Both the position numbers and the translations under genes were made by a program. A stretch of 64,000 bases of DNA, from the NCBI GenBank assembly GCA_035274925.1, contig DATENS010000253.1, forward strand, positions 3,266 to 67,265, read 5' to 3'. Positions within the stretch are counted from its first letter, which is position 1; each line of letters starts with the position of its first letter. The stretch comes from Pyrinomonadaceae bacterium (lineage in GTDB: Bacteria; Acidobacteriota; Blastocatellia; Pyrinomonadales; Pyrinomonadaceae). Under the pieces are notes generated by a model that made no database searches, had not been told where the DNA came from, and saw nothing but the letters and a program-made list of their open reading frames with translations. Below are positions 1,468-59,998 of this stretch, in pieces.

Positions 1468-1773
1468 AGGAGTGAAGCGTTTGGATCCAATCAATGTTGC
1501 CTTACCCCACAACCAGGGGGGCGTGCCTTACCCACGCCTCCTTCGTTCTAAGTTAATCGTCAGGGTCCCTCGGGCTGCCAATTCTTTGCTGCACCGTTCC
1601 CCAACCACGCAAGAACCCAACGCATCCACGTTCTAAACAAACAAAGCCTCCGCAAGAGCTTCCCGCGGACGCTTCAAATTCGGCGCTGTGTGCAGGTCTC
1701 CCCGGACTGACTTTTGTTCGCGAATGGTTCGCGGCGGCACAGCAGGTTTAAGTCATCTGAAAGGGAGAAAACG

Positions 1774-9261: not shown

Positions 9262-9346
9262 GCTGGCCGAAGTGCTGACGTAAATCGTTGTGCAATAGTA
9301 TCAGGATCAGCCGAGAAACAGAGATGCGGCGGCCACAAACCTTCCG

Positions 9347-10456: not shown

Positions 10457-10512
10457 GATGGGCTGTCCTGAATCGCGATGCTTCATTTCATCGGGAGGCT
10501 GACCGGTTAGCT

Positions 10513-11982
10513 CTACCTTTCGGTTTCGGTCAGATCGTCATAGATCATTCCGCGCCGGTCTTTCTTCGCCTTGGTTACCGCCGCGTAGCCGCCTTCCTCG
10601 TTCCGGCTGATCTTGTTCTGAGCATACAAACCCTCGAGTACGAATTCACAGGCTGCGATGGTTTGCGCGACGTCCGATCGTTTGAAGTCGAATGGGATTA
10701 AGGAGTTTTCGATCAGATCGGGCACGGCCTCGACCAAAAGCATGCATTCTTCGGCGCCGGCGGTATCGGCGAGGCGCAAGTTGTTTCCTTCATCGAACCA
10801 TCGGACCGTAGGCGCAAAGTCGATGCCGACAAAATACCCTTCAAAGATTTCGCCGGACGCGCGTTTGATCAAATCTTTGGCGATGCGGTTAGCGCCCACT
10901 TGTTCGCCCTCGTATTCCAATTCCATTTTGCCGGTCATTGAGGGGATCGCCGCATAAATGTCGCCGATGCGAGGCAGGATTTTCTCTTCACCGGTCATCA
11001 AAGCCCGGCGCTCGGCGTTGGAAACGACTGATTCCATCACCGTGATCGGGAGACGCTGCGAAACACCGGAGTGTTTGTCGATGCGCTGATCATCGCGAGC
11101 CTCGAAAGCAATCTGTTCGATAATCTCACGGACAAAGTCGGGAATATGCAGCCGTTCGACGAAACCATCGCGCGCGGTCCATGCTTCCTGGCGAGTGATC
11201 TCAACGCCCAACTCAATTTCTTTTGGATAGTGCGTCATGATCTCAGCGCCGATGCGGTCCTTCAGCGGTGAGATGATCTTGCCGCGAGCCGTGTAGTCTT
11301 CAGGGTTTGCCGAGAACACTAGCATCACATCGAGCGGCAAACGCACCGGATAACCTTTTATCTGCACGTCGCCTTCCTGCATGATGTTGAAGAGTCCAAC
11401 CTGAATCTTGCCCGCCAGATCCGGCAGTTCGTTTATCGCGAAGATGCCGCGATTCGCGCGTGGCAAGAGCCCATAGTGAATCGTCAGCTCGTCGCTGAGG
11501 AGGTGGCCGCCCTTCGCCGCCTTAATGGGATCGACGTCCCCGATGATGTCGGCAATCGTCACGTCGGGCGTCGCCAGTTTCTCTACAAACCGCGCGTCGC
11601 GGTCGACCCATGCAATCTGCGTTGCATCACCATGCAACTGAATCATCTGTCGCCCATAAGCACTAATAGGCGCAAAAGGATTGTCGTTGACCTCTGAGCC
11701 CGCGATGATGGGAATTTTGGCGTCCAGCAGATTAGTGAGCTGACGAATGATGCGGCTTTTCGCCTGGCCGCGCAGGCCCAGCAAAATCAGGTTATGCCGC
11801 GAGAGAATCGCGTTGATAAGCTGCGGAACGACGGTTTCGTCATAGCCGACAATGCCCGGGAAGAGTTTCTCGCGCCGTTTGAGTTTACAGATCAGGTTCG
11901 CGCGCAGCTCGGCTTTGACTGACTGGGGGCGATAACCGCTGTCTTTGAGTTCCCCTAAGTTCGCCGCTCGTTCGTTTGTCAT
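10513..11982 (-). CDS. Mg-chelatase-subunit-I-like AAA+ ATPase
   Basis: 489 aa. IVGYDETVVPQLINAILSRHNLILLGLRGQAKS (Walker A). GIFAINELPDL (Walker B-like). Pattern is BchI/ChlI-like. Confidence 0.8.
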   Translation of the reverse strand: MTNERAANLGELKDSGYRPQSVKAELRANLICKLKRREKLFPGIVGYDETVVPQLINAILSRHNLILLGLRGQAKSRIIRQLTNLLDAKIPIIAGSEVNDNPFAPISAYGRQMIQLHGDATQIAWVDRDARFVEKLATPDVTIADIIGDVDPIKAAKGGHLLSDELTIHYGLLPRANRGIFAINELPDLAGKIQVGLFNIMQEGDVQIKGYPVRLPLDVMLVFSANPEDYTARGKIISPLKDRIGAEIMTHYPKEIELGVEITRQEAWTARDGFVERLHIPDFVREIIEQIAFEARDDQRIDKHSGVSQRLPITVMESVVSNAERRALMTGEEKILPRIGDIYAAIPSMTGKMELEYEGEQVGANRIAKDLIKRASGEIFEGYFVGIDFAPTVRWFDEGNNLRLADTAGAEECMLLVEAVPDLIENSLIPFDFKRSDVAQTIAACEFVLEGLYAQNKISRNEEGGYAAVTKAKKDRRGMIYDDLTETER

Positions 11983-12023
11983 GATGATGAAAAGATTCTA
12001 ACCGAGAAAAAGCCACTCAACGA

Positions 12024-12276
12024 GTCCGCGGAGCGGACGGCGGCATAAAGCCCGGGGTGAGCACAGCGAACCCCGGGACATGAGCCCATATAAAACAATA
12101 AGTCCGCGAAGCGGCCGATAGCCCTTAAAGTTGCGGTCTGTCCAAATTAGACTACAAACACAATTCTTATTATCAACAGCTGTCGCCCGCTTCGCGGGCT
12201 GGTATCCGAAATTGGACCTGTCCCGGGGTTCGCGTACGCTCACCCCGGGCTTTATGCCCTCGTCCGCTCCGCGGAC
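12024..12276. repeat. MITE-like element: ~57-bp imperfect terminal inverted repeats around a ~138-bp core
   Basis: Left arm 12024-12080: GTCCGCGGAGCGGACGGCGGCATAAAGCCCGGGGTGAGCACAGCGAACCCCGGGACA. Reverse complement of right arm 12219-12276: GTCCGCGGAGCGGACGAGGGCATAAAGCCCGGGGTGAGCGTACGCGAACCCCGGGACA. Confidence 0.8.
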
Positions 12277-12290
12277 GTGCCAATGAGATT

Positions 12291-13814
12291 TCAAATCGCT
12301 ACGAACGTTGAGGTGGGCGTTTCCCTCACCAAACCATCCGCTTGCAACTTCTCCAAGTGCGCGATTACTGCACGCTCGGCCAGTCCATGCGCTTTGGGTG
12401 ACACATCCGTGTAAACGCGCGCCACTATCTCTTTCGGAGTGGCAGCCCCGTTCCGCACCGCTGCCAGAATGGAAGTTTCGCGTTCAAGACGATGCGAAAT
12501 GTATTCGTCAAGCTTCTCGTAAGGATTCGCAATCGCCGGTCCGTGTCCACCAAACATGACAGTCAGGCCAGGCAGCGCGCGCATCCGCTCGAGCGAAGCG
12601 AGATAATCGCGCATGTTGCCTTCCGGCAAATCAATTAGCACCGATCCGAATCCGACGACATTGTCTCCGGAAATCAGTGCGCCGGTTCGTTCATCGTAGA
12701 AACAAAGATGACCGCGTGCGTGACCCGGCGTGTGCAGCGCGCGCAGTTCGATGGGCGGCTCGCCCTCGAGGACGATCCTTTGTCCGTCTTCGATAAAGCG
12801 ATCGACATCGAACTGGCCTTTTAACGATTCAGCGGTAGACGGGTGTGCTGCCACCGGAATACGTGCCCCATGTTTTTCGGCGAGATGGACATTCAGCGCA
12901 TTCACTCCTGCAACGTGATCGGGATGAACGTGAGTGAGCACTATTTCCCGTAAGCTCCGTCCCTGGCCAACAAGATCGTCGACGCACTCCGCCAGGGCCT
13001 GCTGTTCATCTTCATATGGCGAACCCGGATCAATGATCAAAATTTCACGCGAAGTGCTGATGAGATAGCAGTTCGTATGTGTGGCGGGCGGTCTGGTCGG
13101 CGTCCGCACCGGGAAGCAGATGTAATTTGGGTGAAACTCTATTCGCCGGGTTGGTTCGCGATGTGCTTCGGGTATCGAAAGAAAGCGCTCGACCAGATCG
13201 TCGTCCAATCCCTTTGCGAGAGTTTTCATGGCGTGCAGCACCGGCGGCACGACGATGATTTCGCTTCGCTGCCACAGACCATACGCCTCTGACGCAGCAA
13301 TCCATTCGCCGCTCTCCAATTCTGAGTCTTCAGTGATATGCGGTTCCTGCTTTGCGGGACAGTTAGCGAGGAAGAACCACGTATCAAATCGTCGTGGCGC
13401 AAATGGCGGCGTTACCCATCGGCCGGCAAACGTAAAATCGTTTGCGTCCAGATGAAGATTGTAGTGTGCCAGCAACTCCGGCCAGCTCATCCGCCCGGAT
13501 TCCAAATCGTCGAACAGGGAGTTCCGCTGACCCACAGTCAATGTCTTCGATCCGCGCGCAAGCAGCACCTTAATTTCCTCGAACAGCTCACGCGCGGCGC
13601 AACTGATCATAGCCGCACGCTCAGGATCGTCGCAGTTCTCGATGCGCGCCTCATTGTCATGCGCCTCTAGTTGGCCACCGGGAAACGCGCGATAACCGCC
13701 CAGAAAAGCGAGTTTGGTGCTGCGCTTTGCCCAAAAGACTTCCGGATTATTTTTGTCCGTTTGGTGGCGAAGGAGAATTACCGCGGCGGCATCTTTTGGT
13801 GTTTGTTGAGGCAC
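12291..13814 (-). CDS. NUDIX hydrolase / MBL-fold metallo-hydrolase fusion protein
   Basis: N-terminal Nudix box GGQLE....ER.A.REL.EE (FPGGQLE..AARELFEEIKV). C-terminal THVHPDHVAG metallo-beta-lactamase motif. Confidence 0.8.
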   Translation of the reverse strand: MPQQTPKDAAAVILLRHQTDKNNPEVFWAKRSTKLAFLGGYRAFPGGQLEAHDNEARIENCDDPERAAMISCAARELFEEIKVLLARGSKTLTVGQRNSLFDDLESGRMSWPELLAHYNLHLDANDFTFAGRWVTPPFAPRRFDTWFFLANCPAKQEPHITEDSELESGEWIAASEAYGLWQRSEIIVVPPVLHAMKTLAKGLDDDLVERFLSIPEAHREPTRRIEFHPNYICFPVRTPTRPPATHTNCYLISTSREILIIDPGSPYEDEQQALAECVDDLVGQGRSLREIVLTHVHPDHVAGVNALNVHLAEKHGARIPVAAHPSTAESLKGQFDVDRFIEDGQRIVLEGEPPIELRALHTPGHARGHLCFYDERTGALISGDNVVGFGSVLIDLPEGNMRDYLASLERMRALPGLTVMFGGHGPAIANPYEKLDEYISHRLERETSILAAVRNGAATPKEIVARVYTDVSPKAHGLAERAVIAHLEKLQADGLVRETPTSTFVAI

Positions 13815-13904
13815 GGTTTTGACTCTGCAGATTACGCAGGCAAGAGGTCAGTACCACCCGCAAGCTCCGGTTCTTACTCACCCTCGTTCAATCTGCTACC
13901 GCTC

Positions 13905-14588
13905 TTACGACCAGCGATATCTCTCGCCGTCTCCACTCGTCCATGGATTACCCCTCATGTGATAGCCGCCTTCTTCCCAGAAGCCGGCCTGATCTTGGGC
14001 GAGAAAGCGGACGCCCTTGACCCATTTCGCGGATTTCCAGGCGTAGAGCTGAGGGATGATAAGGCGCACCGGCCCGCCATGCTGAGGCGGAATCGGCTGA
14101 CCATCGTGCATAAAAGCAAAAAGCGAATCTTCTTTGAGGAAGTACTCGATAGGAACATTCGTGGTCCAGCCGTAATCGTAACCGAAGGCGAGCACAAATT
14201 TGGCTTCCGGCTTTACCGCCGCACGTTCGGCAATCTCACGCGTTGAGATGCCGGTCCAGACATTGTCCAGGCGCGACCAGCGCGTCACGCAATGAAAGTC
14301 TGCGTACACCTTCACGGCCGGTAACTCCATGAATTCGTCGAGCGAAAATTTGAGAAAGTTCTCGACCAGGCCGTCGACTTCGAATTCCCAGGTGGCCAGA
14401 TCGACTGGCGGAGTCCCATGCGCGTCCAGCACCGGCCACTTCTTGGTGCGTGATTGCCCGGGCGGGATCCGGTCCTCGCGCCGCGTGTCCGGGCTGACAA
14501 TCACATCCGGTTCGCTAAGGTCTTCTGGTTTGCGCGGTTCGTGAGATTGGTATTTCGGATCTTTGATTAGGCTATCGAGGAAACTCAT
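13905..14588 (-). CDS. sulfite-oxidase-like molybdopterin oxidoreductase
   Basis: 227 aa. HCVTRWS.., GGPVRLIIPQLYAWKSAKWV and GFWEEGGYH are typical of the SUOX/YedY-fold family. Confidence 0.8.
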   Translation of the reverse strand: MSFLDSLIKDPKYQSHEPRKPEDLSEPDVIVSPDTRREDRIPPGQSRTKKWPVLDAHGTPPVDLATWEFEVDGLVENFLKFSLDEFMELPAVKVYADFHCVTRWSRLDNVWTGISTREIAERAAVKPEAKFVLAFGYDYGWTTNVPIEYFLKEDSLFAFMHDGQPIPPQHGGPVRLIIPQLYAWKSAKWVKGVRFLAQDQAGFWEEGGYHMRGNPWTSGDGERYRWS

Positions 14589-28032: not shown

Positions 28033-29457
28033 ATGGCTTCGCCGATTTCGCAAACTGCTAAGTCCGGACCGCGCTCAATCGCCGAACTCTACCAATCCGT
28101 GCGCGCGCGCACGCTGGAGATCGTCGCGCCGCTCGAGATTGAAGACTATGTCATCCAAACCGCCGAGTTCATGAGTCCGCCGCGCTGGCACATTGGCCAC
28201 ACGTCCTGGTTTTTTGAGACGGTGCTGCGAAAATATCAGCCGGGCTACAAAGTCTTTTCAGACGACTTTCTCTTTTACTTCAATTCTTACTACGAAGGAT
28301 TTGGCGAGCGGATAGAACGTCAAAAGCGCGGCACGCGTTCCCGTCCGACGGTTGCTGAAACCAGAAAGTATCGCGCGCATATCGATGAGCAGATGTCGCG
28401 ATTCATCGAGAAGCTTTCGGCGCGCGATGATGCCGCGGAAATTCAGTCGATCATTCGGCTCGGACTCGAGCACGAGATGCAGCACCAGGAGTTACTGGTC
28501 TACGACATCAAACACCTTCTCTGCGATCAGTTTGATGCGCCCATGAAACCTGCGCCGCCCTCGCTGGAAACTGTCAGCGGCATGGCGGAGGTTGAAGGTG
28601 GGTTGTTTGAGCTGGGATACGCTATCTCCCTCCCCACAAGTGGGGAGGGCCGGGGTGGGGTAGCCACGGGCCAACCTCTCCCCCAACCCCTCTCCGAAGG
28701 CGGAGAGGGGAGTCAGAGAAACTCAAAAGACTTCGCCTGGGACAACGAAAAGCCCGCGCACAAAGTATTCCTCGAAGACTTTCAAATCGATCGCGCGCCG
28801 GTGAGCAATGGCGAGTATCTCGAATTCATTAACGCCGGCGGCTACACAGATTTTCGCTGGTGGCTATCGTCAGGTTGGGAGAAGGTGACGACGGAACAGT
28901 GGCAAGCGCCGCTTTACTGGGAACAACTCGAGGGCGAATGGATGATTCGGGACTTCGGCGGATTACATCGCGTCGCGGATAAATCAAACGAACCGGTTTC
29001 GCACGTAAGTTTTCTCGAAGCGTCAGCCTATGCCAAGTGGGCCGGCAAGCGCCTGCCAACTGAAGCCGAATGGGAAAAAACGGCTACGCTCGATTCCACG
29101 CAGCCATTTCCGTGGGGCAACCAGCCGTCTGACGAGAGTCGTGGAAATCTTTTCGAGAATGGTTTGTGGAGCGTCGCGCCCATCGGAGCTTTTCCAAACG
29201 GTAAAACTTCCCAAGGCATTCATCAGATGATTGGTGACGTCTGGGAATGGACCACTTCGGACTACACCCCTTACCCGGGCTTCAAATCCGAGTTTGACGA
29301 GTATAACGACAAATGGTTTGTCGGCCAGAAAGTTCTGCGCGGCGGTTCCTTTGCCACGCCGCAAATTCACATTCGCTCGACCTACCGAAACTTCTTCTAC
29401 CCGCACGAGCGTTGGATGATTGCCGGGTTCCGCTGTGCGAAAGACCCGGGCAAATAG
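28033..29457 (+). CDS. EgtB/SenA-like sulfoxide (or selenoxide) synthase: DinB_2 + FGE-sulfatase domains
   Basis: 474 aa. [74 protein letters not shown]. Confidence 0.8.
28624..28722 (+). repeat. in-frame hairpin-repeat insertion inside the EgtB/SenA-like CDS
   Basis: CCCTCCCCA-caag-TGGGGAGGG (28628-28649), then CCGGGGTGGGG, then CCCCTCTCCG-aagg-CGGAGAGGGG (28687-28710). Same family as 16618.. and 19334... Encodes [35 protein letters not shown]. Confidence 0.7.
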
Positions 29458-41589: not shown

Positions 41590-42708
41590 ATGAAAAACTT
41601 GAAGCACGCCGCAACACTACTCTTCTTTTTTTGCTTATTGATGCTGAGCAGCAATCTCGCTTTCGCTCAGCCGTCAAAAACGACGGGCCCTTCACTCACT
41701 CAAGCCGAAGGATCGCACTTCGCCCGCCTCGCGTTGAAGTGTGTGCGCAAGGAATTTCCAAACAAGCTCGATCACGTGAACAACGATGCGGACGATGTAC
41801 GTAGTCCGCGCACGATGCACCCCGCGTTTTATGGTTGCTTCGACTGGCATTCGACTGTGCATGGTCACTGGATGCTGGTGCATTTGCTCAAACTGTTTCC
41901 GGGCATGCCTGAGTCGCGCGACATTCGCAGCGCGCTTGATGCAAACCTGAGTGCGAAAAATATTGCCGGCGAAGTTGCCTATCTCAAGCAAGCGAACCGG
42001 GCTTCATTCGAGCGCACTTATGGGTGGGCGTGGCTGTTAAAGCTGGCCGAGGAGTTGCACGGCTGGCAGGACGAGGACGGCTCGCGCTGGGCGAGAAATT
42101 TGCAACCACTCGCCGACGCGTTCGTGGAAAAGTATCTCGCTTTCATGCCCAAACAGAATTATCCGATTCGCACGGGTGTGCACCCGAATACGGCATTCGG
42201 TCTGGCGTTCGCGCTCGATTACGCGCGTGTTGCCGGCGACCGGAAACTTGAGTCGCTGATCATCGAACGCAGCCGCGCATACTTTGCTCGCGACGTGAAT
42301 TATCCGGCCGCGTGGGAGCCCGGCGGCGAAGATTTCTTTTCACCGGCACTGATGGAAGCCGATCTGATGAGACGCGTGATGAACCGGGCTGAGTTCACGC
42401 GCTGGTTTCACCGTTTTCTGCCAGGCATCTCGCGTAATCAACCGCGGGCCTTGCTTGATCCGGCGATTGTTACCGACCGCGCCGATCCAAAATTGGTGCA
42501 CCTCGACGGGCTCAATCTGAGCCGCGCCTGGTGCATGCGCAGCATCGCGAACGCGCTGCCGGCAAACGATCCGGCGAGACGAGTTCTCGCGCGATCGGCC
42601 GAAGGGCATGCGCGCGCCGCCTTGAAGTTTGTCGGAAGCGGAAACTACGAAGGCGATCACTGGCTGGCGTCTTTCGCGGTCTACGTGCTCACCACGCCGG
42701 CGCCATAA
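41590..42708 (+). CDS. DUF2891-family protein (family recalled from memory)
   Basis: Signal peptide. HPAFYGCFDWHSTVHGHWML motif. Confidence 0.65.
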   Translation: MKNLKHAATLLFFFCLLMLSSNLAFAQPSKTTGPSLTQAEGSHFARLALKCVRKEFPNKLDHVNNDADDVRSPRTMHPAFYGCFDWHSTVHGHWMLVHLLKLFPGMPESRDIRSALDANLSAKNIAGEVAYLKQANRASFERTYGWAWLLKLAEELHGWQDEDGSRWARNLQPLADAFVEKYLAFMPKQNYPIRTGVHPNTAFGLAFALDYARVAGDRKLESLIIERSRAYFARDVNYPAAWEPGGEDFFSPALMEADLMRRVMNRAEFTRWFHRFLPGISRNQPRALLDPAIVTDRADPKLVHLDGLNLSRAWCMRSIANALPANDPARRVLARSAEGHARAALKFVGSGNYEGDHWLASFAVYVLTTPAP

Positions 42709-42792
42709 ATGCCACAGGTCCTGCCAATTCCAAGGAATCCGCGACCAGGGTTTATACTTACGGCATTCATAAACTAATTATTCGGAGTACTA

Positions 42793-44820
42793 ATGCCTGC
42801 TGAACAAACAACAAAACGAGGGAGCGATGTGCGGTTCGACGGCCGCATTCTCTTTCTCACCGAAGACACGTCATTAATTCGCCGTCAGCTCGAAGCTTCT
42901 GGCGACGACGCAAAACAGATCGAGGACGAGCTGGCCCAGCGGCTGGCCAACGACGATTTGCCGCTGATGAACAACATCTCGACGGACGAGATCACGCCCG
43001 GCTGGGTCTGTTTTTATTACGACGAAACGTTGGGCCAATACGTGTACGCCGGCATGCGCGACAGCGCCGTCAAGAAAGATGAAGTTAAGAACGGCGGCTT
43101 TTCGGTGGTCGTCTCGGGTTTGTCGAAAGGCTGCGGATCGTCACGCGAGACTGCGCCGTACGCTGAGAAATGGGCGGGCATTCAACTTGTTATCGCGAAG
43201 AGCATCGAAAAAATTTACGGCCAGAACTCGCAGAACATCGGCCTGCTCACTTCGACTGATCTCGGACTGGTTGAGCGAGTTCGCCGCGGCGAAGAGATCG
43301 CGCTCTCGGAATTTACCAGCGGCCTGGATCCGATTTCCAAAGACATTGTCGAGTACGGCGGCCTGTTCAATTACAACAAGGCGCGTCTGGCGGGCGAGGT
43401 CTCGCCACCAGTACCACCTGCGTCAGCGGGTGGGTCCGCCCGCCCCATGAACATCGTCGAGAAAATCATCGCGCGCCACGCGTTTGTTAAAGCAGGCACT
43501 GTCGGCGTGGAATCAGTCAAGCCGGGTGATGCGCTTTTCGCCGTCGCAGACGTGCGCTTCTCGCATGAATACGTCACGCCGATGGCCGCGTCGCTTTTGA
43601 CGCAAGCGCTCGGGCCGGATGCGAAAGTAACCGAGCCTGATTCGGTCTTCGCTTTCCGCGATCACCTGACCTTTCTCAACAAAGTCATGTCGCCAAAACA
43701 TCGCGAGATGGGCTTGTTGGAAAAGGCGGAAGGCCTTGCAACTACTCAGGAAAGCTTTACCAGCAAGCAGGGCATCAAGCTCTATGGCGAGAATCCTGAT
43801 GGTGGCTCGGAAGCAATTTGTCACAACGCGGTGGTTGAGGATCTCGCGTTGCCCGGACAGGTGGTGATCGGCACTGACTCGCACACCTGCATGGCCGGCG
43901 TGCTCGGCTGTTTCGCATTCGGCGTAGGCTCAACCGACATGGCCAACGCCTGGTACACGAAAGACATTCGCATTCGCGTGCCTGAGACCGTGCGTTACGT
44001 TTTGAAGGGGAAGAAACGGGACGATGTCGCGGCCAAGGATGTCATGTTGTATATCCTGGCGACTGACTACATGAAATCTAGTCAGGGCATCGGCAAAGTC
44101 CTGGAGTTCGCCGGCGAGGATCTAATGAACTGGCCGATGGACGAGCGTGCCACCCTCACGAACATGTCAGTCGAAGCCGGCGGCTTCACCGGCATCATCG
44201 AACCCGACGAACACACGCTGGCTTACATCGTGAGCACGCGTGGCCTTGATGCCGAGACGGTGCGCCAAGGATTTGTTTACAGCGACCCGGATGCGGAGTA
44301 TGCCGCCGTGTTTGAGATCGATCTCGACGAGATCCGGCCGATGGTCGCGCTGCCGGGTGATCCGCGCAACGGCATTCCGATCGATTCGCTCGAAGAAGAG
44401 GTGCGCATTGACGCGGCGTATGGTGGTTCTTGCACCGGCGGAAAAATGGCCGACATGGATATGTACGCGGAAGTGCTACAGCATGCTCTGTCACAAGGCA
44501 AGCATGTCGCGCCGGGCGTCCATCTGTATCTGCAATTTGGCTCGCAGAAGATCAAGCAGTACGCTAAAGAGCGCGGCTACATCGAAATCTTCCAGCGGGC
44601 TGGAGCTGAATTGATCGATCCTTCGTGCGGAGCTTGTATCAACGCCGGCCCCGGCGCGTCGCCGTCGGCTGAGACCGTAACCGTCAGCGCGCAGAATAGA
44701 AACTTTCCCGGCCGTAGCGGCCCCGGCAAACTCTATCTCGCGTCTCCTTATGTCGTAGCTGCCTCGGCAATCGCGGGAAAAATTGTCGAACCGGATGAAT
44801 TCTTGCAGCGAGGCGAATAA
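42793..44820 (+). CDS. aconitase-family hydro-lyase, LeuD-like swivel domain fused N-terminal to a LeuC-like catalytic domain
   Basis: N-terminus: ISTDEITP, GCGSSRETAPYA, NSQNIGLL (LeuD-like). C-terminus: GTDSHT, GGSCTGG, DPSCGACI (Fe-S ligand regions). Confidence 0.8.
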   Translation: MPAEQTTKRGSDVRFDGRILFLTEDTSLIRRQLEASGDDAKQIEDELAQRLANDDLPLMNNISTDEITPGWVCFYYDETLGQYVYAGMRDSAVKKDEVKNGGFSVVVSGLSKGCGSSRETAPYAEKWAGIQLVIAKSIEKIYGQNSQNIGLLTSTDLGLVERVRRGEEIALSEFTSGLDPISKDIVEYGGLFNYNKARLAGEVSPPVPPASAGGSARPMNIVEKIIARHAFVKAGTVGVESVKPGDALFAVADVRFSHEYVTPMAASLLTQALGPDAKVTEPDSVFAFRDHLTFLNKVMSPKHREMGLLEKAEGLATTQESFTSKQGIKLYGENPDGGSEAICHNAVVEDLALPGQVVIGTDSHTCMAGVLGCFAFGVGSTDMANAWYTKDIRIRVPETVRYVLKGKKRDDVAAKDVMLYILATDYMKSSQGIGKVLEFAGEDLMNWPMDERATLTNMSVEAGGFTGIIEPDEHTLAYIVSTRGLDAETVRQGFVYSDPDAEYAAVFEIDLDEIRPMVALPGDPRNGIPIDSLEEEVRIDAAYGGSCTGGKMADMDMYAEVLQHALSQGKHVAPGVHLYLQFGSQKIKQYAKERGYIEIFQRAGAELIDPSCGACINAGPGASPSAETVTVSAQNRNFPGRSGPGKLYLASPYVVAASAIAGKIVEPDEFLQRGE

Positions 44821-52086: not shown

Positions 52087-52743
52087 CTATTTTTGCGCCT
52101 CGGCGATGAAATACACAACTTCGCGGCGGTCATTGGATTGAAGGCGCCGTGCCCACGAGGATTTCAGGTGTGGCCATTCCGCCGGGTGCACCGGTCCGCT
52201 TTCGCGCACTTTGAATCCGGCCGCGTCGTACTTTGGCGCGAGACTGGATTTGAGGTAGTCCGCGGACAAAACCGGTAGTTCAAGACGGGCAATCTCTGTT
52301 TTGTCGCGCACCGGATCGATGCCGATCACGACTTCGAGCAGGCAGCCCGGCGCGCTCACGCGATGGAGATTCTTCAACACTTCCGGATCGCCGCAAGCGA
52401 CGGCGCGCAGCAAACTTCCCCACGGAAAATGAATGTGAATCTCGTCTGCCGTATCGTTCAGTTCGGCCGGGAGGTCTTCGATGGCCGCCTGCACGAACAT
52501 CAGGTTAGGCGCGCCACCTTTAGCCGGCTGACGCGTCGCCTTCAACGAGATCTTTTCCAGCGGCTTCGCATTCGCGTCGATCCCCAGGTAGAACCTGGCC
52601 GGGTTTTCCCGCGCGCTCTGGTATACAAAGCGACCGTCGCCGGTCCCGATATCGATAATCACTCCGCGGGCCTGATCGTCGGATGTAGGGCTCGATAAGT
52701 TGTCGAAACTCGCGTTCGTCGAGTTATCAGAATGTACTGCCAC
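52087..52743 (-). CDS. class I SAM methyltransferase resembling the Kam/NpmA 16S rRNA m1A1408 methyltransferase family
   Basis: [14 protein letters not shown]......P..FY.GIDA....L..IS.K....P.KGG.PN..FV.AA.E.LP.EL...AD.I.I.FPWGSLL ... SSWARRL. Collinear with my recollection of NpmA. Confidence 0.55.
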
Positions 52744-52897: not shown

Positions 52898-53452
52898 ATG
52901 AAACGAATCCTCTTTGGGACTCTTTGCGGCGTCATTTCTGTGGTGACGATTTGCCCGGCGATAGCCGAGTCCGGCGATAGCGCGGGTGAAGAGCGAATCG
53001 AAATCACTGTGCCCACGGCTCCCTGGAAGCTGACTTTGCCCAAAAATGATTTTGGGGTTAGACGGCAGCAGATCGATCCGAAGGGCCGTTTTGGATCTAC
53101 ATTCCTCACCGATGATGATCGGCACCTGAATATTTCAATTTTCGTTCGGCCGGCGAGCGAGTGTCAGGACAGCAAGTCCTGTCGCGATATGCTGTGGGCG
53201 AAATATCGCTCGCGGCCAAATCTGGAGAGTGTGGCTCTCGCCGAGATCGGCGCGGCTAGTTGCGTTGAATTTGTGGATCCGATGTTTCAGGGCCATCCGG
53301 TTCGACAGCAGAACATGCTGGCAGTATTCGTGGTAGACGGGTTCCGGGTGGACCTTCATCTGATGGGTGCTGACAAGGACCGCAACCGCGAATTGTTCAC
53401 ACGGATTATCAAGGCGATAAAGTTTGAACCCAAGGGAGCCCCCAAGTCTTAA
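52898..53452 (+). CDS. secreted hypothetical protein
   Basis: Signal peptide [23 protein letters not shown]. The stop is 1 nt before the CbbQ-like start. Confidence 0.5.
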
Positions 53453-53453
53453 A

Positions 53454-54260
53454 ATGCCCGAACGCGCCATTGAAGAATATCGAATTGTTGACGAGCCTTT
53501 TTATCTGCCCGTCGATCACGAAGTTGATCTGTTCGCAGCGGCCCATTCCGCTCACCTGCCGGTAATTTTGAAAGGGCCGACGGGCTGCGGCAAAACGCGT
53601 TTTGTCGAGCATATGGCTTGGCGGCTCGAGCGGCCGCTGATCACCGTTGCCTGCCACGAGGATCTTTCTTCTACTGACCTGGTGGGCAGGTTTCTGATCG
53701 AAGGTGAAGAGACAGTTTGGCACGATGGGCCGCTGACGTCGGCCGTGCGCCACGGCGCAATTTGCTATCTCGACGAAGTCGTTGAGGCGCGCAAGGATAC
53801 AGTCGTCATCATTCACCCGCTTACGGATCATCGCCGGCGGCTTCCGATTGAAAAAAGAGGAACAGTCCTGGAAGCGCCGTCGGATTTCATGCTCGTGGTT
53901 TCCTATAATCCGGGTTATCAATCGATCCTGAAAGATCTGAAGCAGTCGACGCGCCAGCGTTTTGTAGCCATTGATTTTGACTATCCGCCTCCCGAAGCCG
54001 AAACCACGATCGTCGCGCGTGAGGGCGGCATCGACGAAGGCACCGCGCGCGATTTGGTTCTAATCGGACAGAAGGTGCGTAACCTGCGGGGCCACGGGTT
54101 GGAAGAAGGTGTCTCAACCCGGCTGTTGATCTACGCTGCGCAACTTATCTCGCACGGCATCCCACCAGTGCGCGCGGCCGAAGTCGCGATGTGCTCGCCG
54201 ATCACCGACGATCGCGATCTGCAAAGAAGCATTCGCGAGATCGTGACCACGGTGATGTAG
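53454..54260 (+). CDS. CbbQ/NorQ/NirQ-type MoxR-family AAA+ ATPase
   Basis: [10 protein letters not shown] (Walker A), [10 protein letters not shown] (Walker B), C-terminal [12 protein letters not shown]...PITDD (CbbQ_C-like). The ORF-track start 53424 would overlap the upstream gene. Confidence 0.85.
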
Positions 54261-54262
54261 AG

Positions 54263-57200
54263 GTGGCTGACGAACCGCAAACGAACAAACACCCCACGCC
54301 GCTTGACGAGCAAATCAACGAGCATCTGAAGGCCGCCAGGAATCCTGCCGAGCGACGCACCGTCGCCGGACTGCTGCGACAAATAAGCCAGCTTCCGCTT
54401 GAACATACGCGCGCTGCGGTCGAAACCAGCGCGGTAATCGGTGCGGTGTCGTTGCGGGCCAGCATTGAGTTTCTGCGCGCGGCATCGGACGCCGCCCGCG
54501 TGCTCGATCCCGCAGAGTTGCGTGCGTGGGGCGAGATCGGGCGCCGTTTGACGATGGCCGACATCGAAAACGGCGTGAGCTTTTTCATCGCGGGCGTTTC
54601 AGAATTCGCAAACGTGCCGGCCGTCGCGCGGCCCTTTGTGTTTCAGGTTTGCTCGCGGCAAATGACGTTGTCTGCTCCTGCCGCCGCGGAAACCTTACAC
54701 GGCGCTTCCGCGCTGGCGAAAGAGATCGGCGACGCCGAAGTGCTGCGCGCCGTTTATCAAATCGCGTCGGAGATCTCGCGGCGCTCGGCAAAGCACAGCA
54801 GCGAGTTTCTGAATGCGACCTCACTCGTAATCCCCCGGCTTGCTGTTTACGACCCACCAGCTACCGCAGGTCCAGAATCATTGGCGGGCGGTAGCCCGCC
54901 TCTAAACAACGACGTAACGCTCTCTGCAATCAATCTCACTTCGCAATTCGCCGAGCGCGCCGGCGGCATCGCCTCAGATGCGTGGCAGGCGATTCCCGTG
55001 GCAATAGAAAACCTGGATGTTGGAGCAGCCCTCAAGTTGATGCGGCGCGCCTCGAGTTTTCTTGAAAGAGGCGGCGGCACAGCCCTGAACGTACTCGCAT
55101 CCGGCGGCGAGATTCTGCGAATCCTGCCTGAATGCTTTGATGATTGGATCGAGTTGCTTTGGACGGTGGCCGTGCATGGCAATGCCGGACTTGTCGCTTT
55201 CATTCGCGCCAGCCCGCCGTTCTTTCAAACCATCGCCGGACGAAGCCGTGAGGAGCGCGGCGTCCTGGCCCGTCGGGTGATGACCCTCACGCGTGACGTG
55301 GCTCGTGTGGACGCCGAAAGCGCGCTGGCGTGTCTACGCTCAGCCGGCAAAGCCCTGCACACAGTCTCGATCGATCAGTTTGAGAGTTGGGCCCGCGCCG
55401 GATTGATTAGCGCGGATGCGCGCGTGCGCCGGAGTTATTACGCGCTCGAAACGCGTACCAGCAACGAAGCGTTGCGCGTGGGCGGCGCCGGAGTCGCGCT
55501 TGAATCGATTCAGCCCCTGCTGCGTCTTTACGTCGAAGGACTGACCGGCCGTGCCGTCGAGGTTGCGCCGGTAGCGGCGGTGCCGGTTGAGTCGCGCATC
55601 GGCGACGGCCGCACGATTCACCTGCCATCGGTGGTGGCGGAGTTTGGCGATGCCGATCTCGACTTTCGGCTATACAAAGTCCTGGCCGCTCACGCAGCCG
55701 GTCAGATCGAATTTGGAACTTACGAGCGTGACTCGGAAGACTTGCGCGCGGCTTATGCTTCGTTGACTGAGCTTTATGATCCGGCGAGGCAGGACGATCG
55801 CGACGCGTTTGCCATCGATCCAAATCTCCTCGCGGAAACTGAGTCTCACGCAAAGGCGCAAAGTCGCAAAGAAATCCCTGGCGAATTGGATTATCGCCAG
55901 GTTCTCAACCTCTTCTCAATTCCTGCACTCGCTCGCAGAATCTTCGGAACTCTGGAAAACGCCCGCATCGATCGACACCTGCGGCGCACTTATCGCGGCC
56001 TGGTGCGGGATCTGGATTTGATTCGCGACCACCTGCGGCATCGCCGCCCCCAGATCATCGATTTACCGCCCGCGTTGATCCCGTTCGAGCTGCTATTTCA
56101 AATCACGCTGCTCGGCGGCGCGCTCGACGACGCGCGCGAGTTTTACGGTCAAGTCGTCTCGGAACTCGAAACCATCGTTGTTAACTATTTATCAAACCCG
56201 CTTGCGACGGTGGCCGATACGTTGATGGCCACCAGCCGCGTCTATGCGCTGTTTCAATCAATCGCCCTTGAAGATTCCGAACAGCAGATCGAAGTCCCGG
56301 ATGAGATGGACCAGGACGACCAGGGCAAGATGGCGGAGCAGATGATGCGCGAGCGCCAGGCCGATCGACAGCCGCAACGTCGCGACGCGCGCGAGCTCTT
56401 CAATGCCTGGAATCGCGAAACCGATGGCGAGTTTGATGAGCTCGAAGGCAGTGAAGCCTGGGGAGAAGGCGACGTGCCGGAACAGGATCTGGAAGCCGGC
56501 GAGGTCGCATTTAATTACGACGAGTGGGACCGCGATCTGGTCGATCATCGCTTAGGCTGGTGCCGCGTGGTGGAAAAGAAAGTTAAGCGCGGCAGCCGCG
56601 ATTTCGTCGACGATACACGCGAGCGTTATCGCGGCGTCGTGTCATCAATTCGTCATCAGTTTCAGTTGATGAAGCCTGAGAACCTTACAAAGATCGCAAA
56701 TGAAATTGACGGAGAAGATTACGATCTGAACGCAGTCGTCGATTATTTCATCGACCGCCGCGCCGACGGGCAGCAGTCGGAACGCATTTACACAAAACGC
56801 CTGCGCCGGAGGCGCGATGTGGCAGTGTCTTTCCTGCTGGATCAGTCGTCTTCAACCGCGCGCACCATCGGACGCCACCCGCTGCAGCCTTACACGCATC
56901 CGGGCCGGCGCATCATTGAAATTGAAAAAGAAGGCCTGGTGCTGATGAGCGAGGCGCTCGAGGCGGTCGGCGACGCTTACTCGATCAACGGCTTCACTTC
57001 CGAAGGCCGCCGCAACGTAAAGTTTTATGTATTGAAGGACTTCAGCGAGCAGTATTCCGATGAAGTAATGCGGCGCATCGGCGGCATCACCTATCAAAAC
57101 AACACGCGGCTGGGCGCAGCGATTCGGCACGCTTCCGCGAAACTGGAAAAGCAGGACGCACGCACACGGTTGTTGATAGTCCTGTCTGACGGGCGGCCTT

Positions 57201-57421
57201 ACGATCACGATTACGGCGACGCGCGTTACGCGCGCGAGGACACGCGCGAAGCCCTGCGCCAAGCCAAGACTGCCGGCATTACACCCTTCTGCATCACCAT
57301 CGATCGCGAATCCGAAGCCGAGCTGCGTGATCTATACGGCGAAGTTGGCTACACGATTATTGATGACGTGCTCACTTTGCCGGAAAGACTGCCGGGGATT
57401 TATCGAAGGTTGACGACGTGA
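54263..57421 (+). CDS. CbbO/NorD-like protein: long helical N-terminal region plus C-terminal VWA domain
   Basis: C-terminal [10 protein letters not shown] (MIDAS DxSxS), ...TRLG.A..., [10 protein letters not shown]. Start is uncertain: GTG 54263 follows the CbbQ stop, while ORF-track ATG 54191 overlaps it by 70 nt. Confidence 0.75.
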
Positions 57422-57473
57422 CCCATAGCCGGATAATAGGGTGTAGAAAGGACATTCGACACGCTAAAGAAGC

Positions 57474-58448
57474 ATGGCCGAACTAATTTATCCCACCAAC
57501 GAAATATTGTATGGCCCTTGGCTGATTGATCGGGAGGGTCTAGAGGCCTTTGATGAAATGTTGGACCAAGAGTGGGAACGAATAAACGCGTATAACGATA
57601 AGAAAAAAGAGCAGGAGTTCGAAAAAAGAGTTCAGGAAAGAATCGAACGATACGAGTCGGAAGAACGTGATATCGATATTGAGACGGCCCGCCAACAAGA
57701 GAAAAGATTTTCAGAGGAGTACTCTTTCTTAAGATCAGCGTACAGCTCTAGGTCTACGCGAAAAATCAACATACAGCTGAAGGGGAAACGGATCCAAGCA
57801 AATTCTTTTAAAGAAGCGTTTCGAGATCCCGAACTGTTGGGCGAAGTTCCGCGCAAGTTTGACGCTCGGGTGGAGTGCGGAGAGATTGACTGCACTGTTA
57901 TTCTAACGGGCAATCTATTAAGCCTCAGGACTTCTCCGGAAGATAACCGCGAGGCAAGAGAATTGTTTGTGAGTCTCAAGCAATGGGTCGCAGGCATAGC
58001 ACCGCCGAAATGGTTACATCTTTGGAGGAGGTTTAACGGGCTACAGTGGCTTTTATGGTTCCTCACGATCTTGGTTGTTGTACTTACTATGGGGCGTGAC
58101 CCGAAAGACGAAGCGAGGAAAACGTATCAACGGCAAGCCCACGAAATTCTTAACTCAGGAATGTCTCAAGAACAACAAACCAAAGCGATTGAGGTGCTCT
58201 TGGCGCTTCAATCTGAATATGTACCGTCCGCCCAGCCCAATAGAACTCCGGGTTGGTTTGTGTTTTTGTCGTTTGGCGGGCTAGTGATGTGCGCTATTTC
58301 AACGATCGTTCCAAGCGCAGTCTTGGGCATCGGCAAAGGACAAGACCGAATACGCTTTTGGCGTAAGTGGATTTGGTTCGTCTTTATCGCGGTTCCCGGT
58401 TTCGTTCTGGTCAACATTGTGTGGCCCTACCTAGGTGTGGTTCGTTAG
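57474..58448 (+). CDS. orphan protein: charged/coiled N-terminal half plus 3-4 C-terminal TM helices, in an AT-rich island
   Basis: 324 aa. K/E-rich segment KKKEQEFEKRVQERIERYESEERDIDIE. TM helices LQWLLWFLTILVVVL, WFVFLSFGGLVMCAISTIV and IWFVFIAVPGFVLVNIVW. Base composition is clearly lower in GC than the flanks. Confidence 0.55.
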   Translation: MAELIYPTNEILYGPWLIDREGLEAFDEMLDQEWERINAYNDKKKEQEFEKRVQERIERYESEERDIDIETARQQEKRFSEEYSFLRSAYSSRSTRKINIQLKGKRIQANSFKEAFRDPELLGEVPRKFDARVECGEIDCTVILTGNLLSLRTSPEDNREARELFVSLKQWVAGIAPPKWLHLWRRFNGLQWLLWFLTILVVVLTMGRDPKDEARKTYQRQAHEILNSGMSQEQQTKAIEVLLALQSEYVPSAQPNRTPGWFVFLSFGGLVMCAISTIVPSAVLGIGKGQDRIRFWRKWIWFVFIAVPGFVLVNIVWPYLGVVR

Positions 58449-58462
58449 GTTTAGCAGATCAT

Positions 58463-59998
58463 TCAGGCATTAACCCTCTCTCGCCTCACCACGCGCACAC
58501 CTCTTCGCCAGTCTTCATTAATATCGAAGCGGTAAACTTCAATGTCAGGCGCGATGGTTCTGGCCAGCGTGGCGAATGACGGATGGAAGCGGAGGGCGGG
58601 TGCGACGAGGTAAACCAGCGGCGATTCGTCGCTGATCTCGCGCTCGCCGAAAAGTTTTGCCGCAGTGATATGGCCGCGGCGGCGATGGGCCTCGACCCTG
58701 CGCCAGTAATCAACACCCTGAAAAACGTGCTCGCGATCCTCGTTCACCTTTAGTTCGATTACCGCCAGTCGTCCATCACGCCGGAGCGCCAACAGATCGA
58801 TTGGCCGTACCCCGGTCGGTCCTCCGTGCGACGTGCGAAACTGCGCATGCAATGGCGCAATGATTAGCCCAGGATCGAGTTTCGATATGTCGCGGCGCAG
58901 GATTGACTCCAGCCACGCCTCGCCCGCCGCCCGATAAAACCAGTGGCCCCGGTCACGGCAACTCTCGTCGCGATAGGTCTTTAGATCGGCTAGCAACTTC
59001 TCCCAATCTCTTTGGTGATGTTCGCGTAGCGCACGGCGGCGGGCGCCTTCGATGCCGAACCAGATACGCTCTCGCTCCATCACGCGGCGCACGCGCGCGA
59101 ATGGCAAGCCGTGATAGCGCAACGTCTGTCCGTGACGCGAAGACACGACGTCGATGTTGGCGGGCGATCGGGAAATGATTTCCGTGACGCCTTCGCTCGC
59201 AGCAGGCGCCGATACCGGCGGAAACCTGGCGAGCCTTTTCTTCCAAATGTGACTTCGCTTGAACGAGCCAACGCTTTCAACCTGCGCCCAGTCTTTGTCA
59301 ATCGTGAACAATTCAATTCTCTCGCGCAGTGACTGACGAAGGAGAACGTGACGCTGGCGTGCCGCTTCCAGTAATCCGTGCTCGACAATCATGAGCAGAC
59401 GATTGAGTGGCGGCCGCTTTGGACTCGATCGAAGTCGCTCGAACCAAAGCAGCGCGGATGAGAAGAGCGAGTCCGCATTGCGCGCGTCGCTCTCGGCAAC
59501 CGTTGCGGTCACGGCCACGCGCTCGTGCGGCAGACGCAGGATAATGCGCGCATAGCGCCCGGGCTGATCCCGACGCATGCCGGGACTCAGGGCAGCAAGT
59601 TCGACCTTGGCCTCCAAAGTCTGTGCCGCAACCTGCGCGAGTTGCTCGCATCGAGCCTGCCGCGCCGCGGCAATGCCGGCTATTGCGGCTTTGGCGGAAG
59701 CGCGTGGAACCAGTTCCAGCTTCGCGGCTTCGCGTCCCATGCCGCGCGTCGCTTCCAATTCGAGCCGCTCGCCCTTCCAATCCCATCTCGTGATGCGCCA
59801 TGTTTTCGAGCCTTGCTCAGTCCAACTCGAGAAAATCAAACGGCCATGGGCGGCGGAAAAATCAAACTCGTCCCGCTGAATTGCGAGCGGCGCGCCACCA
59901 TTCTGGGTCAGAAACCATTCGCTCTGCCCGTCGAGGATTTTGCGGATCGACTTTTCGGAGTTCGAAACCGTTTCGAGTTGCTTGATTGCCGGGGGCAT
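58463..59998 (-). CDS. hypothetical protein with C-terminal NucS/DUF91-like PD-(D/E)xK nuclease fold
   Basis: 511 aa. ..EAWLESILRRDISKLDPGL....RPIDLLALRRDGRLAVIELKVNEDREHVFQGVDYW (D...E.K...Q..Y pattern). Confidence 0.55.
   Translation of the reverse strand: MPPAIKQLETVSNSEKSIRKILDGQSEWFLTQNGGAPLAIQRDEFDFSAAHGRLIFSSWTEQGSKTWRITRWDWKGERLELEATRGMGREAAKLELVPRASAKAAIAGIAAARQARCEQLAQVAAQTLEAKVELAALSPGMRRDQPGRYARIILRLPHERVAVTATVAESDARNADSLFSSALLWFERLRSSPKRPPLNRLLMIVEHGLLEAARQRHVLLRQSLRERIELFTIDKDWAQVESVGSFKRSHIWKKRLARFPPVSAPAASEGVTEIISRSPANIDVVSSRHGQTLRYHGLPFARVRRVMERERIWFGIEGARRRALREHHQRDWEKLLADLKTYRDESCRDRGHWFYRAAGEAWLESILRRDISKLDPGLIIAPLHAQFRTSHGGPTGVRPIDLLALRRDGRLAVIELKVNEDREHVFQGVDYWRRVEAHRRRGHITAAKLFGEREISDESPLVYLVAPALRFHPSFATLARTIAPDIEVYRFDINEDWRRGVRVVRRERVNA

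Follow-up and report, generated by a model that had tools for sequence, protein, structure and literature searches.

An orphan, long-form remodeller pair of the CbbQ/NorQ-NorD/CbbO family within an accessory-gene hot spot of Pyrinomonadaceae

Introduction

Motors of the CbbQ/NorQ type have two known jobs, the reactivation of RuBisCO and the loading of iron into nitric oxide (NO) reductase (NOR), and automatic pipelines label every homologue 'NorQ/NorD'. Here we address a 64,000-nucleotide stretch of contig DATENS010000253.1 from a Pyrinomonadaceae bacterium (assembly GCA_035274925.1; hereafter the window, G+C 56%), in which the gene for an AAA+ ATPase of this type is followed by one for a long protein ending in a VWA (von Willebrand factor A) domain. 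The pair is bracketed by genes for a predicted secreted protein (g1) and a membrane protein (g4), and raises the question of what it acts on and whether its neighbours belong to it. A sequence-only reading of the region had offered two answers, either a chaperone for a substrate not recognised nearby or a system of three or four components whose payload is encoded by the flanking genes. We find that the pair belongs to the CbbQ/NorQ-NorD/CbbO remodeller family as a long-form orphan, sited within an accessory-gene hot spot. It probably serves a housekeeping client encoded elsewhere, with g1 and g4 as accessory genes in insertion-prone slots.

Results

Gene layout of the locus

Four open reading frames (ORFs) on one strand were found at the positions reported before:

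52898-53452, + strand: g1, 184 amino acids, predicted secreted, with a hydrophobic signal-like N-terminal segment that closes with AIA/ES; last nucleotide of the TAA stop at 53452
53454-54260, + strand: CbbQ/NorQ-type MoxR AAA+ ATPase gene, ATG start, 268 amino acids, the motor
54263-57421, + strand: long NorD/CbbO-type VWA adaptor gene, GTG start, 1052 amino acids, core partner of the ATPase
57474-58448, + strand: g4, 324 amino acids, with a charged coiled N-terminal half and three transmembrane helices

The spacers are 1 nt (g1 to the ATPase gene), 2 nt (ATPase stop to VWA gene start) and 52 nt (VWA gene to g4), confirming the tight packing described in the sequence-only reading; this packing is present in this genome, but relatives do not share it for g1 and g4. 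The products also answered to their earlier descriptions: a secreted protein of 184 amino acids whose gene stops 1 nt before the ATPase start, a CbbQ/NorQ-type MoxR ATPase at 53454-54260, a protein of about 1050 amino acids ending in a VWA domain with a MIDAS (metal ion-dependent adhesion site), which is intact, and a 324-residue protein with a charged N-terminal half, for which three hydrophobic helices were found where 3-4 had been suggested. The VWA partner had been thought longer than its namesakes, and its 1052 residues compare with 638 and 646 in the NorD chains of the PDB and about 770 in CbbO (PMC4660213).

The ATPase is assigned to the CbbQ/NorQ type

The ATPase is a single module in which Pfam recognises AAA_5 (2.9e-36) followed by CbbQ_C (1.1e-31), both far above cut-off. 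A sequence search of the PDB placed it about equally near to CbbQ and NorQ structures, with matches to CsoCbbQ (5c3c, 6e-110), NorQ (9qh4/9qhd, ~1e-102) and AfCbbQ2 (6l1q, 1e-101), followed by the AAA modules of midasin (~1e-51). Weak CobS matches (1e-6 to 2e-7) were also seen. From the translation, Walker A reads GPTGCGKT and the Walker B Asp-Glu is D107/E108. The helix-2 insert reads GRxLIxxxxT and so fits the NorQ motif GRxL[L/I]xxxxT, which contacts the finger of the partner protein (PMC13036017); a P-loop cysteine pair (Cys45/Cys67) and a post-sensor-1 Ile-Leu (I158/L159) are also present. In the 2026 cryo-electron microscopy study of NorQD these three elements are partner contacts or a redox switch in NorQ (PMC13036017). 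On these sequence grounds, we assign gene 2 as a bona fide CbbQ/NorQ-type (CGN subfamily) MoxR AAA+ ATPase.

The long VWA protein joins a NorD-type C-terminal third to an added helical N-terminus

The 1052-residue VWA protein is identical in length and sequence to a deposited Pyrinomonadaceae protein, P0001 (100% identity), and has more than 120 homologues at 75-84% identity, all of about 1035-1100 amino acids. Pfam recognised its C-terminal VWA domain only. A 20-sequence family alignment was used as a profile (A2) for searching the PDB and, together with an AlphaFold2 (AF2) model with a mean predicted local distance difference test score (pLDDT) of 78, divides the protein as follows:

54263-55402, + strand: N-terminal extension, residues ~1-380; an all-alpha, solenoid-like helical repeat of consecutive helices (AF2, pLDDT ~90)
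55415-56272, + strand: NorD/CobT-like middle domain, residues ~385-670; mixed alpha/beta-plus-helical (AF2), with a weak alignment to NorD's N-terminal domain and a match to CobT
56273-56497, + strand: acidic linker, residues ~671-745; Asp/Glu-rich and predicted disordered, with pLDDT <50 at 671-684, 701-712 and 717-738
56498-57421, + strand: YDEWD beta-hairpin and VWA domain, residues ~746-1052; hairpin at 748-773 (AF2), NorD-type C-terminus
56669-56812, + strand: finger inserted into the VWA domain, residues ~803-850; matches the JtNorD finger region (DGDDLDIEAAV...) position by position
56840-56857, + strand: MIDAS motif DxSxST (D860, S862, S864, T865), the site being completed by T948 and D976

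With the single sequence, the PDB search aligned NorD (9qhd_G, 1.2e-47) over residues ~740-1051 only. The profile search gave NorD at 4.8e-85, in an alignment that includes the finger and reaches the last residues, where the extreme C-terminus (...LPGIYRRL) aligns with JtNorD. When the VWA model was submitted to Foldseek, the best match was the NorD VWA domain (9qh6_G, 5.3e-15, target TM-score 0.76) and the next was the MIDAS domain of MDN1 (6.8e-6). Five of the MIDAS residues (D860, S862, S864, T865 and D976) are invariant and T948 is nearly so across the family alignment, which extends down to 26% identity; MIDAS mutants of CbbO lose activase function (PMC4660213). The finger, which spans residues 403-448 in PdNorD (PMC13036017), is modelled as a helix (822-834) on a low-confidence stalk and, by analogy, is predicted to enter the ATPase pore. 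Taken together, the alignments identify the C-terminal third of gene 3 as NorD-type, with a VWA domain, an intact MIDAS, a putative pore finger and a NorD-like C-terminus.

Upstream of this region the middle domain (profile positions 503-692) matches residues 96-293 of CobT (9uka_G, E 1.4e-8), and residues 34-123 of the NorD N-terminal domain align weakly (4.9 bits), solely at profile positions 387-458. Since the NorD alignment begins at position 387, the first ~380 residues have no NorD counterpart. Pfam and PHROGs gave no match for this extension, and profile and Foldseek searches returned only generic designed helical-repeat proteins, which we did not accept as an identification. The solenoid is kept throughout the family and diverges faster than the remaining protein, mean identity being 56% in the N-terminal extension, 70% in the middle domain, 82% in the finger and 89% in the VWA domain. 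As the literature places the target specificity of MoxR-associated VWA proteins in their variable N-terminal domains (PMC9976466), we propose that the extension may be a client-recognition module. In NorD, metal insertion requires the analogous linker (PMC13036017).

Conservation across related loci is limited to the ATPase-VWA pair

We next compared the window proteins by tblastn with those of relatives. A scan of one genome per GTDB species gave 80 loci (L001-L080), all from Pyrinomonadaceae/Blastocatellia metagenome-assembled genomes (MAGs), across which the VWA protein is 62-81% identical. The ATPase was found at 70 of the 80 (84-95% identity), its gene lying upstream of the VWA gene and within ~4.4 kb of it; nine of the ten loci without a match have <2 kb of upstream sequence, and the tenth, L037, is a truly different context. 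The genes further upstream are also well represented, with mnmA at 61/80 loci (mostly 75-88% identity) and sppA at 52/80 (58-83%). A convergent gene downstream of g4, g5, which encodes a 511-residue protein, was present at 21/80. The g1 product was found at four loci (39-51% identity, the ATPase there being 92-95% identical) and g4 at none.

Clustering of the ORFs revealed a constant backbone, serS-sppA-mnmA, ATPase, VWA, interrupted by three slots of variable content, and no third gene that is conserved beside the pair across the 80 loci. The sequence-only reading had proposed such a neighbourhood comparison, holding that a conserved pair among varying flanks would tell against its multi-component alternative, and this is what was seen: the flanks vary and the pair alone is kept. 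Moreover, dozens of unrelated accessory genes fill the slots that precede, separate and follow the two core genes, and in several distant lineages the long VWA gene is not even beside the ATPase gene. By the criterion of the sequence-only reading itself, the idea that g1 and g4 are the payload of a three- or four-component system is refuted. The pair itself is vertically inherited and behaves as a core, housekeeping-like gene. Close gene packing in one genome is thus a poor guide to operon membership.

No linked client is found in the window or at the related loci inspected

The earlier statement that the window holds no known client was borne out by Pfam searches of essentially all its ORFs of at least 200 amino acids, in which no RuBisCO, NOR/haem-copper oxidase, carbon monoxide dehydrogenase or chelatase substrate subunit was found. 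Neither RuBisCO nor NOR was found among the recurrent gene families of the 80 loci, where the labels of some clustered neighbour families are our reading of the sequences and not tool results.

To look further afield, we searched 1.84 billion cluster representatives exhaustively for relatives of the long VWA protein. This gave 1567 cluster representatives at E<1e-30, many of them of 900-1460 amino acids. Those with names belong to other Blastocatellia, to a Pyrinomonas sp. and to Chloroflexota, and long forms are present in Chloroflexota and further lineages. Thirteen contexts beyond the 80 loci were read, among them the following:

L083, Acidobacteriota-like metagenome contig: mnmA, then ATPase-VWA
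L081, Acidobacteriota: VWA alone, flanked by TetR/beta-oxidation genes and MacB
L085, Chloroflexota: VWA alone, flanked by amidase and aconitase
L087, L091 and L097, Pyrinomonas-like clade: VWA alone after Usp, then a conserved ~300-residue hypothetical protein
L089, marine Chloroflexota: ATPase-NUDIX-VWA
L090: ATPase-VWA, with a VWA protein of 1460 amino acids
L098: ATPase-VWA adjoining a molybdopterin oxidoreductase
L096: VWA alone
L094, Miltoncostaea plasmid: ATPase-(N-terminal part)-(VWA part), the VWA protein being split in two genes

It can be seen that the long VWA gene of distant Acidobacteriota and Chloroflexota is often on its own, with no ATPase gene linked to it. All thirteen contexts differ and no gene family recurs beside the pair across lineages. 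The sequence-only reading had also allowed for a known client lying close by in relatives; no nor, cbb or other recurrent client was found near the related loci inspected. A norC-norB-norQ-x-norD cluster on a Sphaerotilus plasmid served as the positive control for a linked client.

Several neighbours were considered as clients and set aside. Fatty-acid oxidation/TetR, amidase/aconitase, Usp/Na-H exchanger, CoaE/NUDIX, major facilitator superfamily/nitroreductase, molybdopterin oxidoreductase, thiamine pyrophosphate enzyme and thiolase/ilvB (the Miltoncostaea plasmid) come from contexts that all differ. Aconitase was judged too weak a candidate, being found 10 kb away in the window, at some related loci and at one Chloroflexota locus. 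In the window a DUF2891 protein gene is followed by that of a 675-residue aconitase-family protein with swapped domain order (41590-44820, + strand). The two also occur near the VWA gene at several related loci (clusters C46 and C47, read from sequence), probably by coincidence, and an aconitase gene adjoins the VWA gene in Chloroflexota L085.

Two of the distant contexts deserve description in their own right. The split form is carried by the 46.6 kb plasmid NZ_CP064358.1 of Miltoncostaea oceani (10599-14309), where a CbbQ-family ATPase is followed by a 362-residue 'hypothetical' protein matching the middle of the long VWA protein and by a 548-residue VWA protein; this cultured actinobacterium is a possible model organism. 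The soluble ~300-residue hypothetical proteins encoded after the VWA gene in the Pyrinomonas-like clade (L087, 13080-13958; L091, 10895-11797; L097, 10180-11085) are 35-40% identical to one another, unrelated to g4 and absent from the window. No ATPase gene adjoins the VWA gene at these three loci.

g1 and g4 occupy insertion-prone slots

The junction between the ATPase and VWA genes has a median gap of 824 nt in relatives. It holds 1-4 intervening ORFs at 43/62 loci and none at 19/62. The inserted ORFs number 83 and fall into 38 families; 64 of the 83 are same-strand. For comparison, the sppA-mnmA junction is occupied at just 10/50 loci. The inserts encode PIN/VapC proteins with a small partner (VapBC), HicA/HicB, a CAP12/Pycsar-type TIR protein, OsmC, HXXEE and YhhN membrane proteins and an FGE-sulfatase protein. 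On the 3' side of the VWA gene, relatives carry DUF433/DUF5615 pairs and other families, including thioredoxin-reductase-like and hydantoinase-like proteins (labels read from sequence); at one locus outside the 80, L092, Pfam identified hydantoinase A/B at this position. We considered an integron-like or site-specific cassette array at the ATPase-VWA junction and rejected it, as an all-against-all blastn of 108 spacers matched orthologous spacers only and found no shared repeat, recombination or att-like motif.

Genes also lie between Q and D in the Sphaerotilus nor cluster and at the marine Chloroflexota locus. Some of the FGE-sulfatase proteins among the inserts of relatives have zinc-ribbon N-termini, and the window itself encodes elsewhere (28033-29457, + strand) a protein combining DinB_2 and FGE-sulfatase domains, EgtB/SUMF1-like.

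The g1 product carries a CxDSKxCRDMxW motif and had no match in Pfam, NCBIfam, PADLOC or PHROGs. Secreted proteins of this type are confined to one sub-clade, where their gene always lies just upstream of the ATPase gene and is once fused to another secreted domain; elsewhere the slot between mnmA and the ATPase gene holds other genes or is empty. Thus, g1 is best read as a lineage-restricted accessory gene and not as a core gene.

The same slot holds, on the opposite strand of the window (52087-52743, - strand), a homologue of the NpmA/KamB-family 16S rRNA (adenine1408-N1) methyltransferases (Pfam PF24675, 6.7e-64; NCBIfam NpmB, 2.5e-52, which is below the curated cut-off). It is an aminoglycoside-resistance-type enzyme in a soil Pyrinomonadaceae MAG, and it occurs at just 5-6 of the 80 loci, always between mnmA and the ATPase gene.

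For g4, sequence and the AF2 model agree on hydrophobic helices at ~190-207, 260-285 and 299-323. A search of 5.8 billion protein clusters gave only two homologues, of which one (57% identity) is encoded directly after the VWA gene of L092, whose VWA protein is 63% identical to that of the window. The gene has a G+C content of 47.6% and a third-position G+C (GC3) of 0.51, close to the 0.48 of the L092 homologue, against 0.63-0.69 for the core genes; this low GC3 resembles that of other inserted genes. Attempts to identify the protein failed, Pfam, NCBIfam, PADLOC and PHROGs being empty and the AF2 model (pLDDT 64) giving no Foldseek match below E 0.1. Accordingly, g4 is best read as a near-ORFan accessory gene, cargo of an insertion-prone slot.

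Regulatory signals and surrounding genes

One match to the sigma-70-like promoter consensus overlaps the VWA stop, upstream of g4:

57410-57437, + strand: TTGACG-16-GATAAT, 10/12 matches

Six such sites occur in the region where 2.4 +/- 1.9 are expected, a hint from consensus only. No Rfam model matched at the gathering threshold or at E<=1, no tRNA was found, and these searches gave no clue to a riboswitch, small RNA or tRNA integration site. The region also has no notable repeats. Upstream of g1, on the opposite strand, lie the methyltransferase homologue, mnmA and sppA; downstream of g4 come the convergent 511-residue protein and then a thiolase.

The 511-residue protein (58463-59998, - strand) has no Pfam domain, and its gene lies beside the thiolase gene at ~17-21 related loci. 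It shows weak PADLOC matches to PDC-S11 (1e-7) over residues ~358-437 and a PD-(D/E)xK-like motif (D...ELK, read by eye).

A second, unrelated AAA+/VWA set lies at 7933-11982 (- strand) and 1714-2811 (+ strand) of the window. It comprises a 489-residue protein with weak AAA_5/Mg-chelatase/sigma-54 ATPase matches, a 442-residue VWA_2 protein and a GT4 glycosyltransferase that also matches the 'GT4-conflict' model (1.7e-10), with an ARPP-1 domain protein (3.6e-59) nearby. This set may be a conflict-type system, although PADLOC returned no matches.

Discussion

Of the two answers given in the sequence-only reading, the multi-component system falls, and the chaperone for a substrate not recognised nearby is supported by the NorQD/CbbQO features of the pair and the lack of a client nearby. 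The high conservation, vertical inheritance, housekeeping synteny, frequent unlinking and lack of a recurrent neighbour argue for a constitutive role with a client encoded elsewhere, and the same five features point away from a conflict system.

Could the pair simply be NorQ and NorD, acting on a NOR or other haem-copper oxidase encoded elsewhere in the genome? NorQ/NorD is the FeB-inserting chaperone of cytochrome c-dependent NO reductase (PDB 9qh4-9qhg; PMC13036017, PMC9976466). Its genes accompany norC and norB, and the activity of the reductase depends on it. Its two proteins are the closest solved structures, and many homologues bear the name NorD at JGI ('nitric oxide reductase NorD protein') and at NCBI. 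The pair keeps every NorQD contact element, shows 33-36% identity to NorD over the VWA domain, finger, MIDAS site and C-terminus, and shares the layout of N-terminal domain, disordered linker and VWA domain. However, the ATPase is as near to CbbQ, and the single-sequence NorD match is limited to the C-terminal third of a protein that exceeds NorD by ~400 residues. The other two thirds, on the N-terminal side, are different, with the helical repeat of ~380 residues added and the NorD N-terminal domain barely alignable, and it is this region that the literature regards as the specificity determinant (PMC9976466). No norB or norC, and no haem-copper oxidase subunit gene, was found in the window, in the recurrent families of the 80 loci or in the thirteen further contexts, whereas the Sphaerotilus cluster was readily seen. 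Finally, the long-form pair is a core gene of aerobic soil heterotrophs, its two genes often split by inserts or unlinked, and its high conservation and housekeeping synteny suit a constitutive role over denitrification. We consider a conventional NorQ/NorD function unlikely.

The remaining enzyme-directed systems fit less well. Genes for CbbQ and CbbO lie in carboxysome loci or after those of RuBisCO, and their products activate the inhibited enzyme by way of a contact between MIDAS and an acidic residue. CbbQ/CbbO, the MoxR-type RuBisCO activase (5c3c, 6l1q; PMC4660213), includes in carboxysomal CsoCbbQ the best single PDB match of the ATPase, and CbbO likewise is a long protein with a poorly conserved region before a C-terminal, MIDAS-bearing VWA domain (PMC4660213). 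But there is no RuBisCO gene in the window or in the recurrent families of related loci, the hosts are heterotrophic Blastocatellia and Chloroflexota, the long form exceeds CbbO by ~280 residues, and Sutter et al. set apart CbbQ homologues that are not associated with RuBisCO (PMC4633670), so that an activase role is effectively refuted by context. A CobS/CobT- or BchI/BchD-like chelatase motor, working with a tetrapyrrole chelatase subunit encoded elsewhere, seems highly improbable. The aerobic cobaltochelatase motor CobS/CobT (9uka) is also an AAA+/C-terminal-VWA pair, and the middle domain is homologous to CobT, but similarity to CobS and CobT falls far short of that to NorQ/CbbQ and NorD, CbbQ_C is carried by the ATPase, and neither cobN nor bchH was found nearby by Pfam among the window ORFs. 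Midasin (Rea1), which acts in eukaryotic ribosome assembly, likewise relies on a MIDAS domain whose inserted finger docks on the ring, and shows the ATPase and MDN1 similarities noted above; in contrast to the pair, it is a single eukaryotic polypeptide, of 4700-4900 residues in the solved structures, in which six AAA modules are fused (PMC4660213), and it acts on pre-60S assembly factors.

It might also be argued that the pair is the conserved sensor or regulator of a conflict or defence system, with the variable genes (g1, g4, TIR, VapC, HicA) as exchangeable effectors. MoxR-vWA ternary conflict systems exist (Kaur et al. 2020, PMC7159879) and likewise join a MoxR-class ATPase and a vWA protein to variable neighbours. 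The diversity of the ATPase-VWA slot, the same-strand bias of its contents and the presence there of TIR and toxin-antitoxin genes would fit such a system, as would the occurrence of g4, with its foreign-looking GC3, after the VWA gene in two distant lineages. Yet at 19 of 62 loci nothing separates the two genes, the downstream genes differ, and the inserts include the non-effectors OsmC, YhhN, HXXEE and FGE-sulfatase, while the toxin-antitoxin modules are self-contained. The ternary systems are sporadic and diversifying, and in them the vWA domain is followed by variable C-terminal effector domains and accompanied by a conserved third component (VMAP, inactive STAND, FtsH or beta-propeller). 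Here, the protein ends in its VWA domain, no effector domain coming after it, the architecture is constant at ~1000-1100 amino acids, and no VMAP-C, inactive STAND, FtsH-type ATPase or beta-propeller domain was found in g1, g4 or g5 (Pfam, NCBIfam, PADLOC). Vertical inheritance, with an ATPase conserved at 84-95%, is the opposite of conflict-system behaviour; in addition, the VWA gene is unlinked from the ATPase gene in other lineages and the spacers share no recombination motif. With PADLOC, the ATPase had only marginal IetA P-loop matches, while g1, the VWA protein and g4 had no match at all, and PHROGs gave nothing. A conflict role is therefore very unlikely.

We therefore favour a NorQD/CbbQO-like remodeller with an unlinked housekeeping client, and some points weigh against it. 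The housekeeping assignment draws only on homology and the pattern of conservation, and a NOR or other classical client elsewhere in the genome is possible. No conserved Cys/His cluster was found in the N-terminal region of the 20-sequence alignment, so that nothing there is specific to metal delivery. Given the 1-2 nt spacing, g1, the ATPase gene and the VWA gene are probably co-transcribed in this genome. A lineage-specific functional link between g4 and the VWA gene is also possible, because both known g4 contexts are the same slot after that gene.

How might a remodeller of this kind work? The hexamer, finger, MIDAS and linker mechanism drawn from NorQD (PMC13036017) and CbbQO (PMC4660213) suggests that six copies of the ATPase would form a ring on which one 1052-residue VWA protein docks as NorD does on NorQ, in keeping with the Q6:O1 stoichiometry expected by analogy with CbbQ/CbbO. 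The VWA finger would enter the pore and contact the helix-2 inserts, and the C-terminus would bind the post-sensor-1 loop. The MIDAS site would grip an acidic residue of the target protein, with the middle domain and the N-terminal helical solenoid providing a second, target-specific grip. By homology, a twisting mechanism can be envisaged, in which a rotation driven by ATP would stretch the acidic linker and thereby remodel the target, and the outcome may be the loading or release of a cofactor or the release of an inhibitor. The target itself would be neither RuBisCO nor a neighbouring NOR but a conserved housekeeping protein whose gene lies elsewhere in the genome.

We further suggest, with slightly more doubt than confidence, that the long-form pair represents a third functional class of CbbQ/NorQ-type remodellers beside the RuBisCO activase and the NOR metallochaperone. 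Such a class would be constitutive, vertically inherited and common to Blastocatellia, Chloroflexota and other soil and marine lineages, its N-terminal solenoid recognising an unsuspected housekeeping client, for example a metalloenzyme of central metabolism or respiration. More boldly, insertions in the ATPase-VWA gap may be tolerated or even exploited, the inserted genes riding on the constitutive transcription of the pair.

These considerations bear on how such genes are annotated. Genes that are probably doing something else have been taken as signs of denitrification potential in soil Acidobacteria, Chloroflexota and sponge symbionts (for example PMC6081418). In that study, the metaproteome of a sponge symbiont contained abundant 'NorQ' without NorB or NorC, which fits the idea that many 'NorQ/NorD' labels are unrelated to NO reductase. 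The correction, and with it the definition of a tractable target, rests on the existence of a large, highly conserved long-form clade with its own N-terminal module, on the lack of a nor or cbb context and on the housekeeping behaviour of the pair. Finding the client would reveal a new AAA+-remodeller-dependent enzyme in some of the most abundant soil bacteria.

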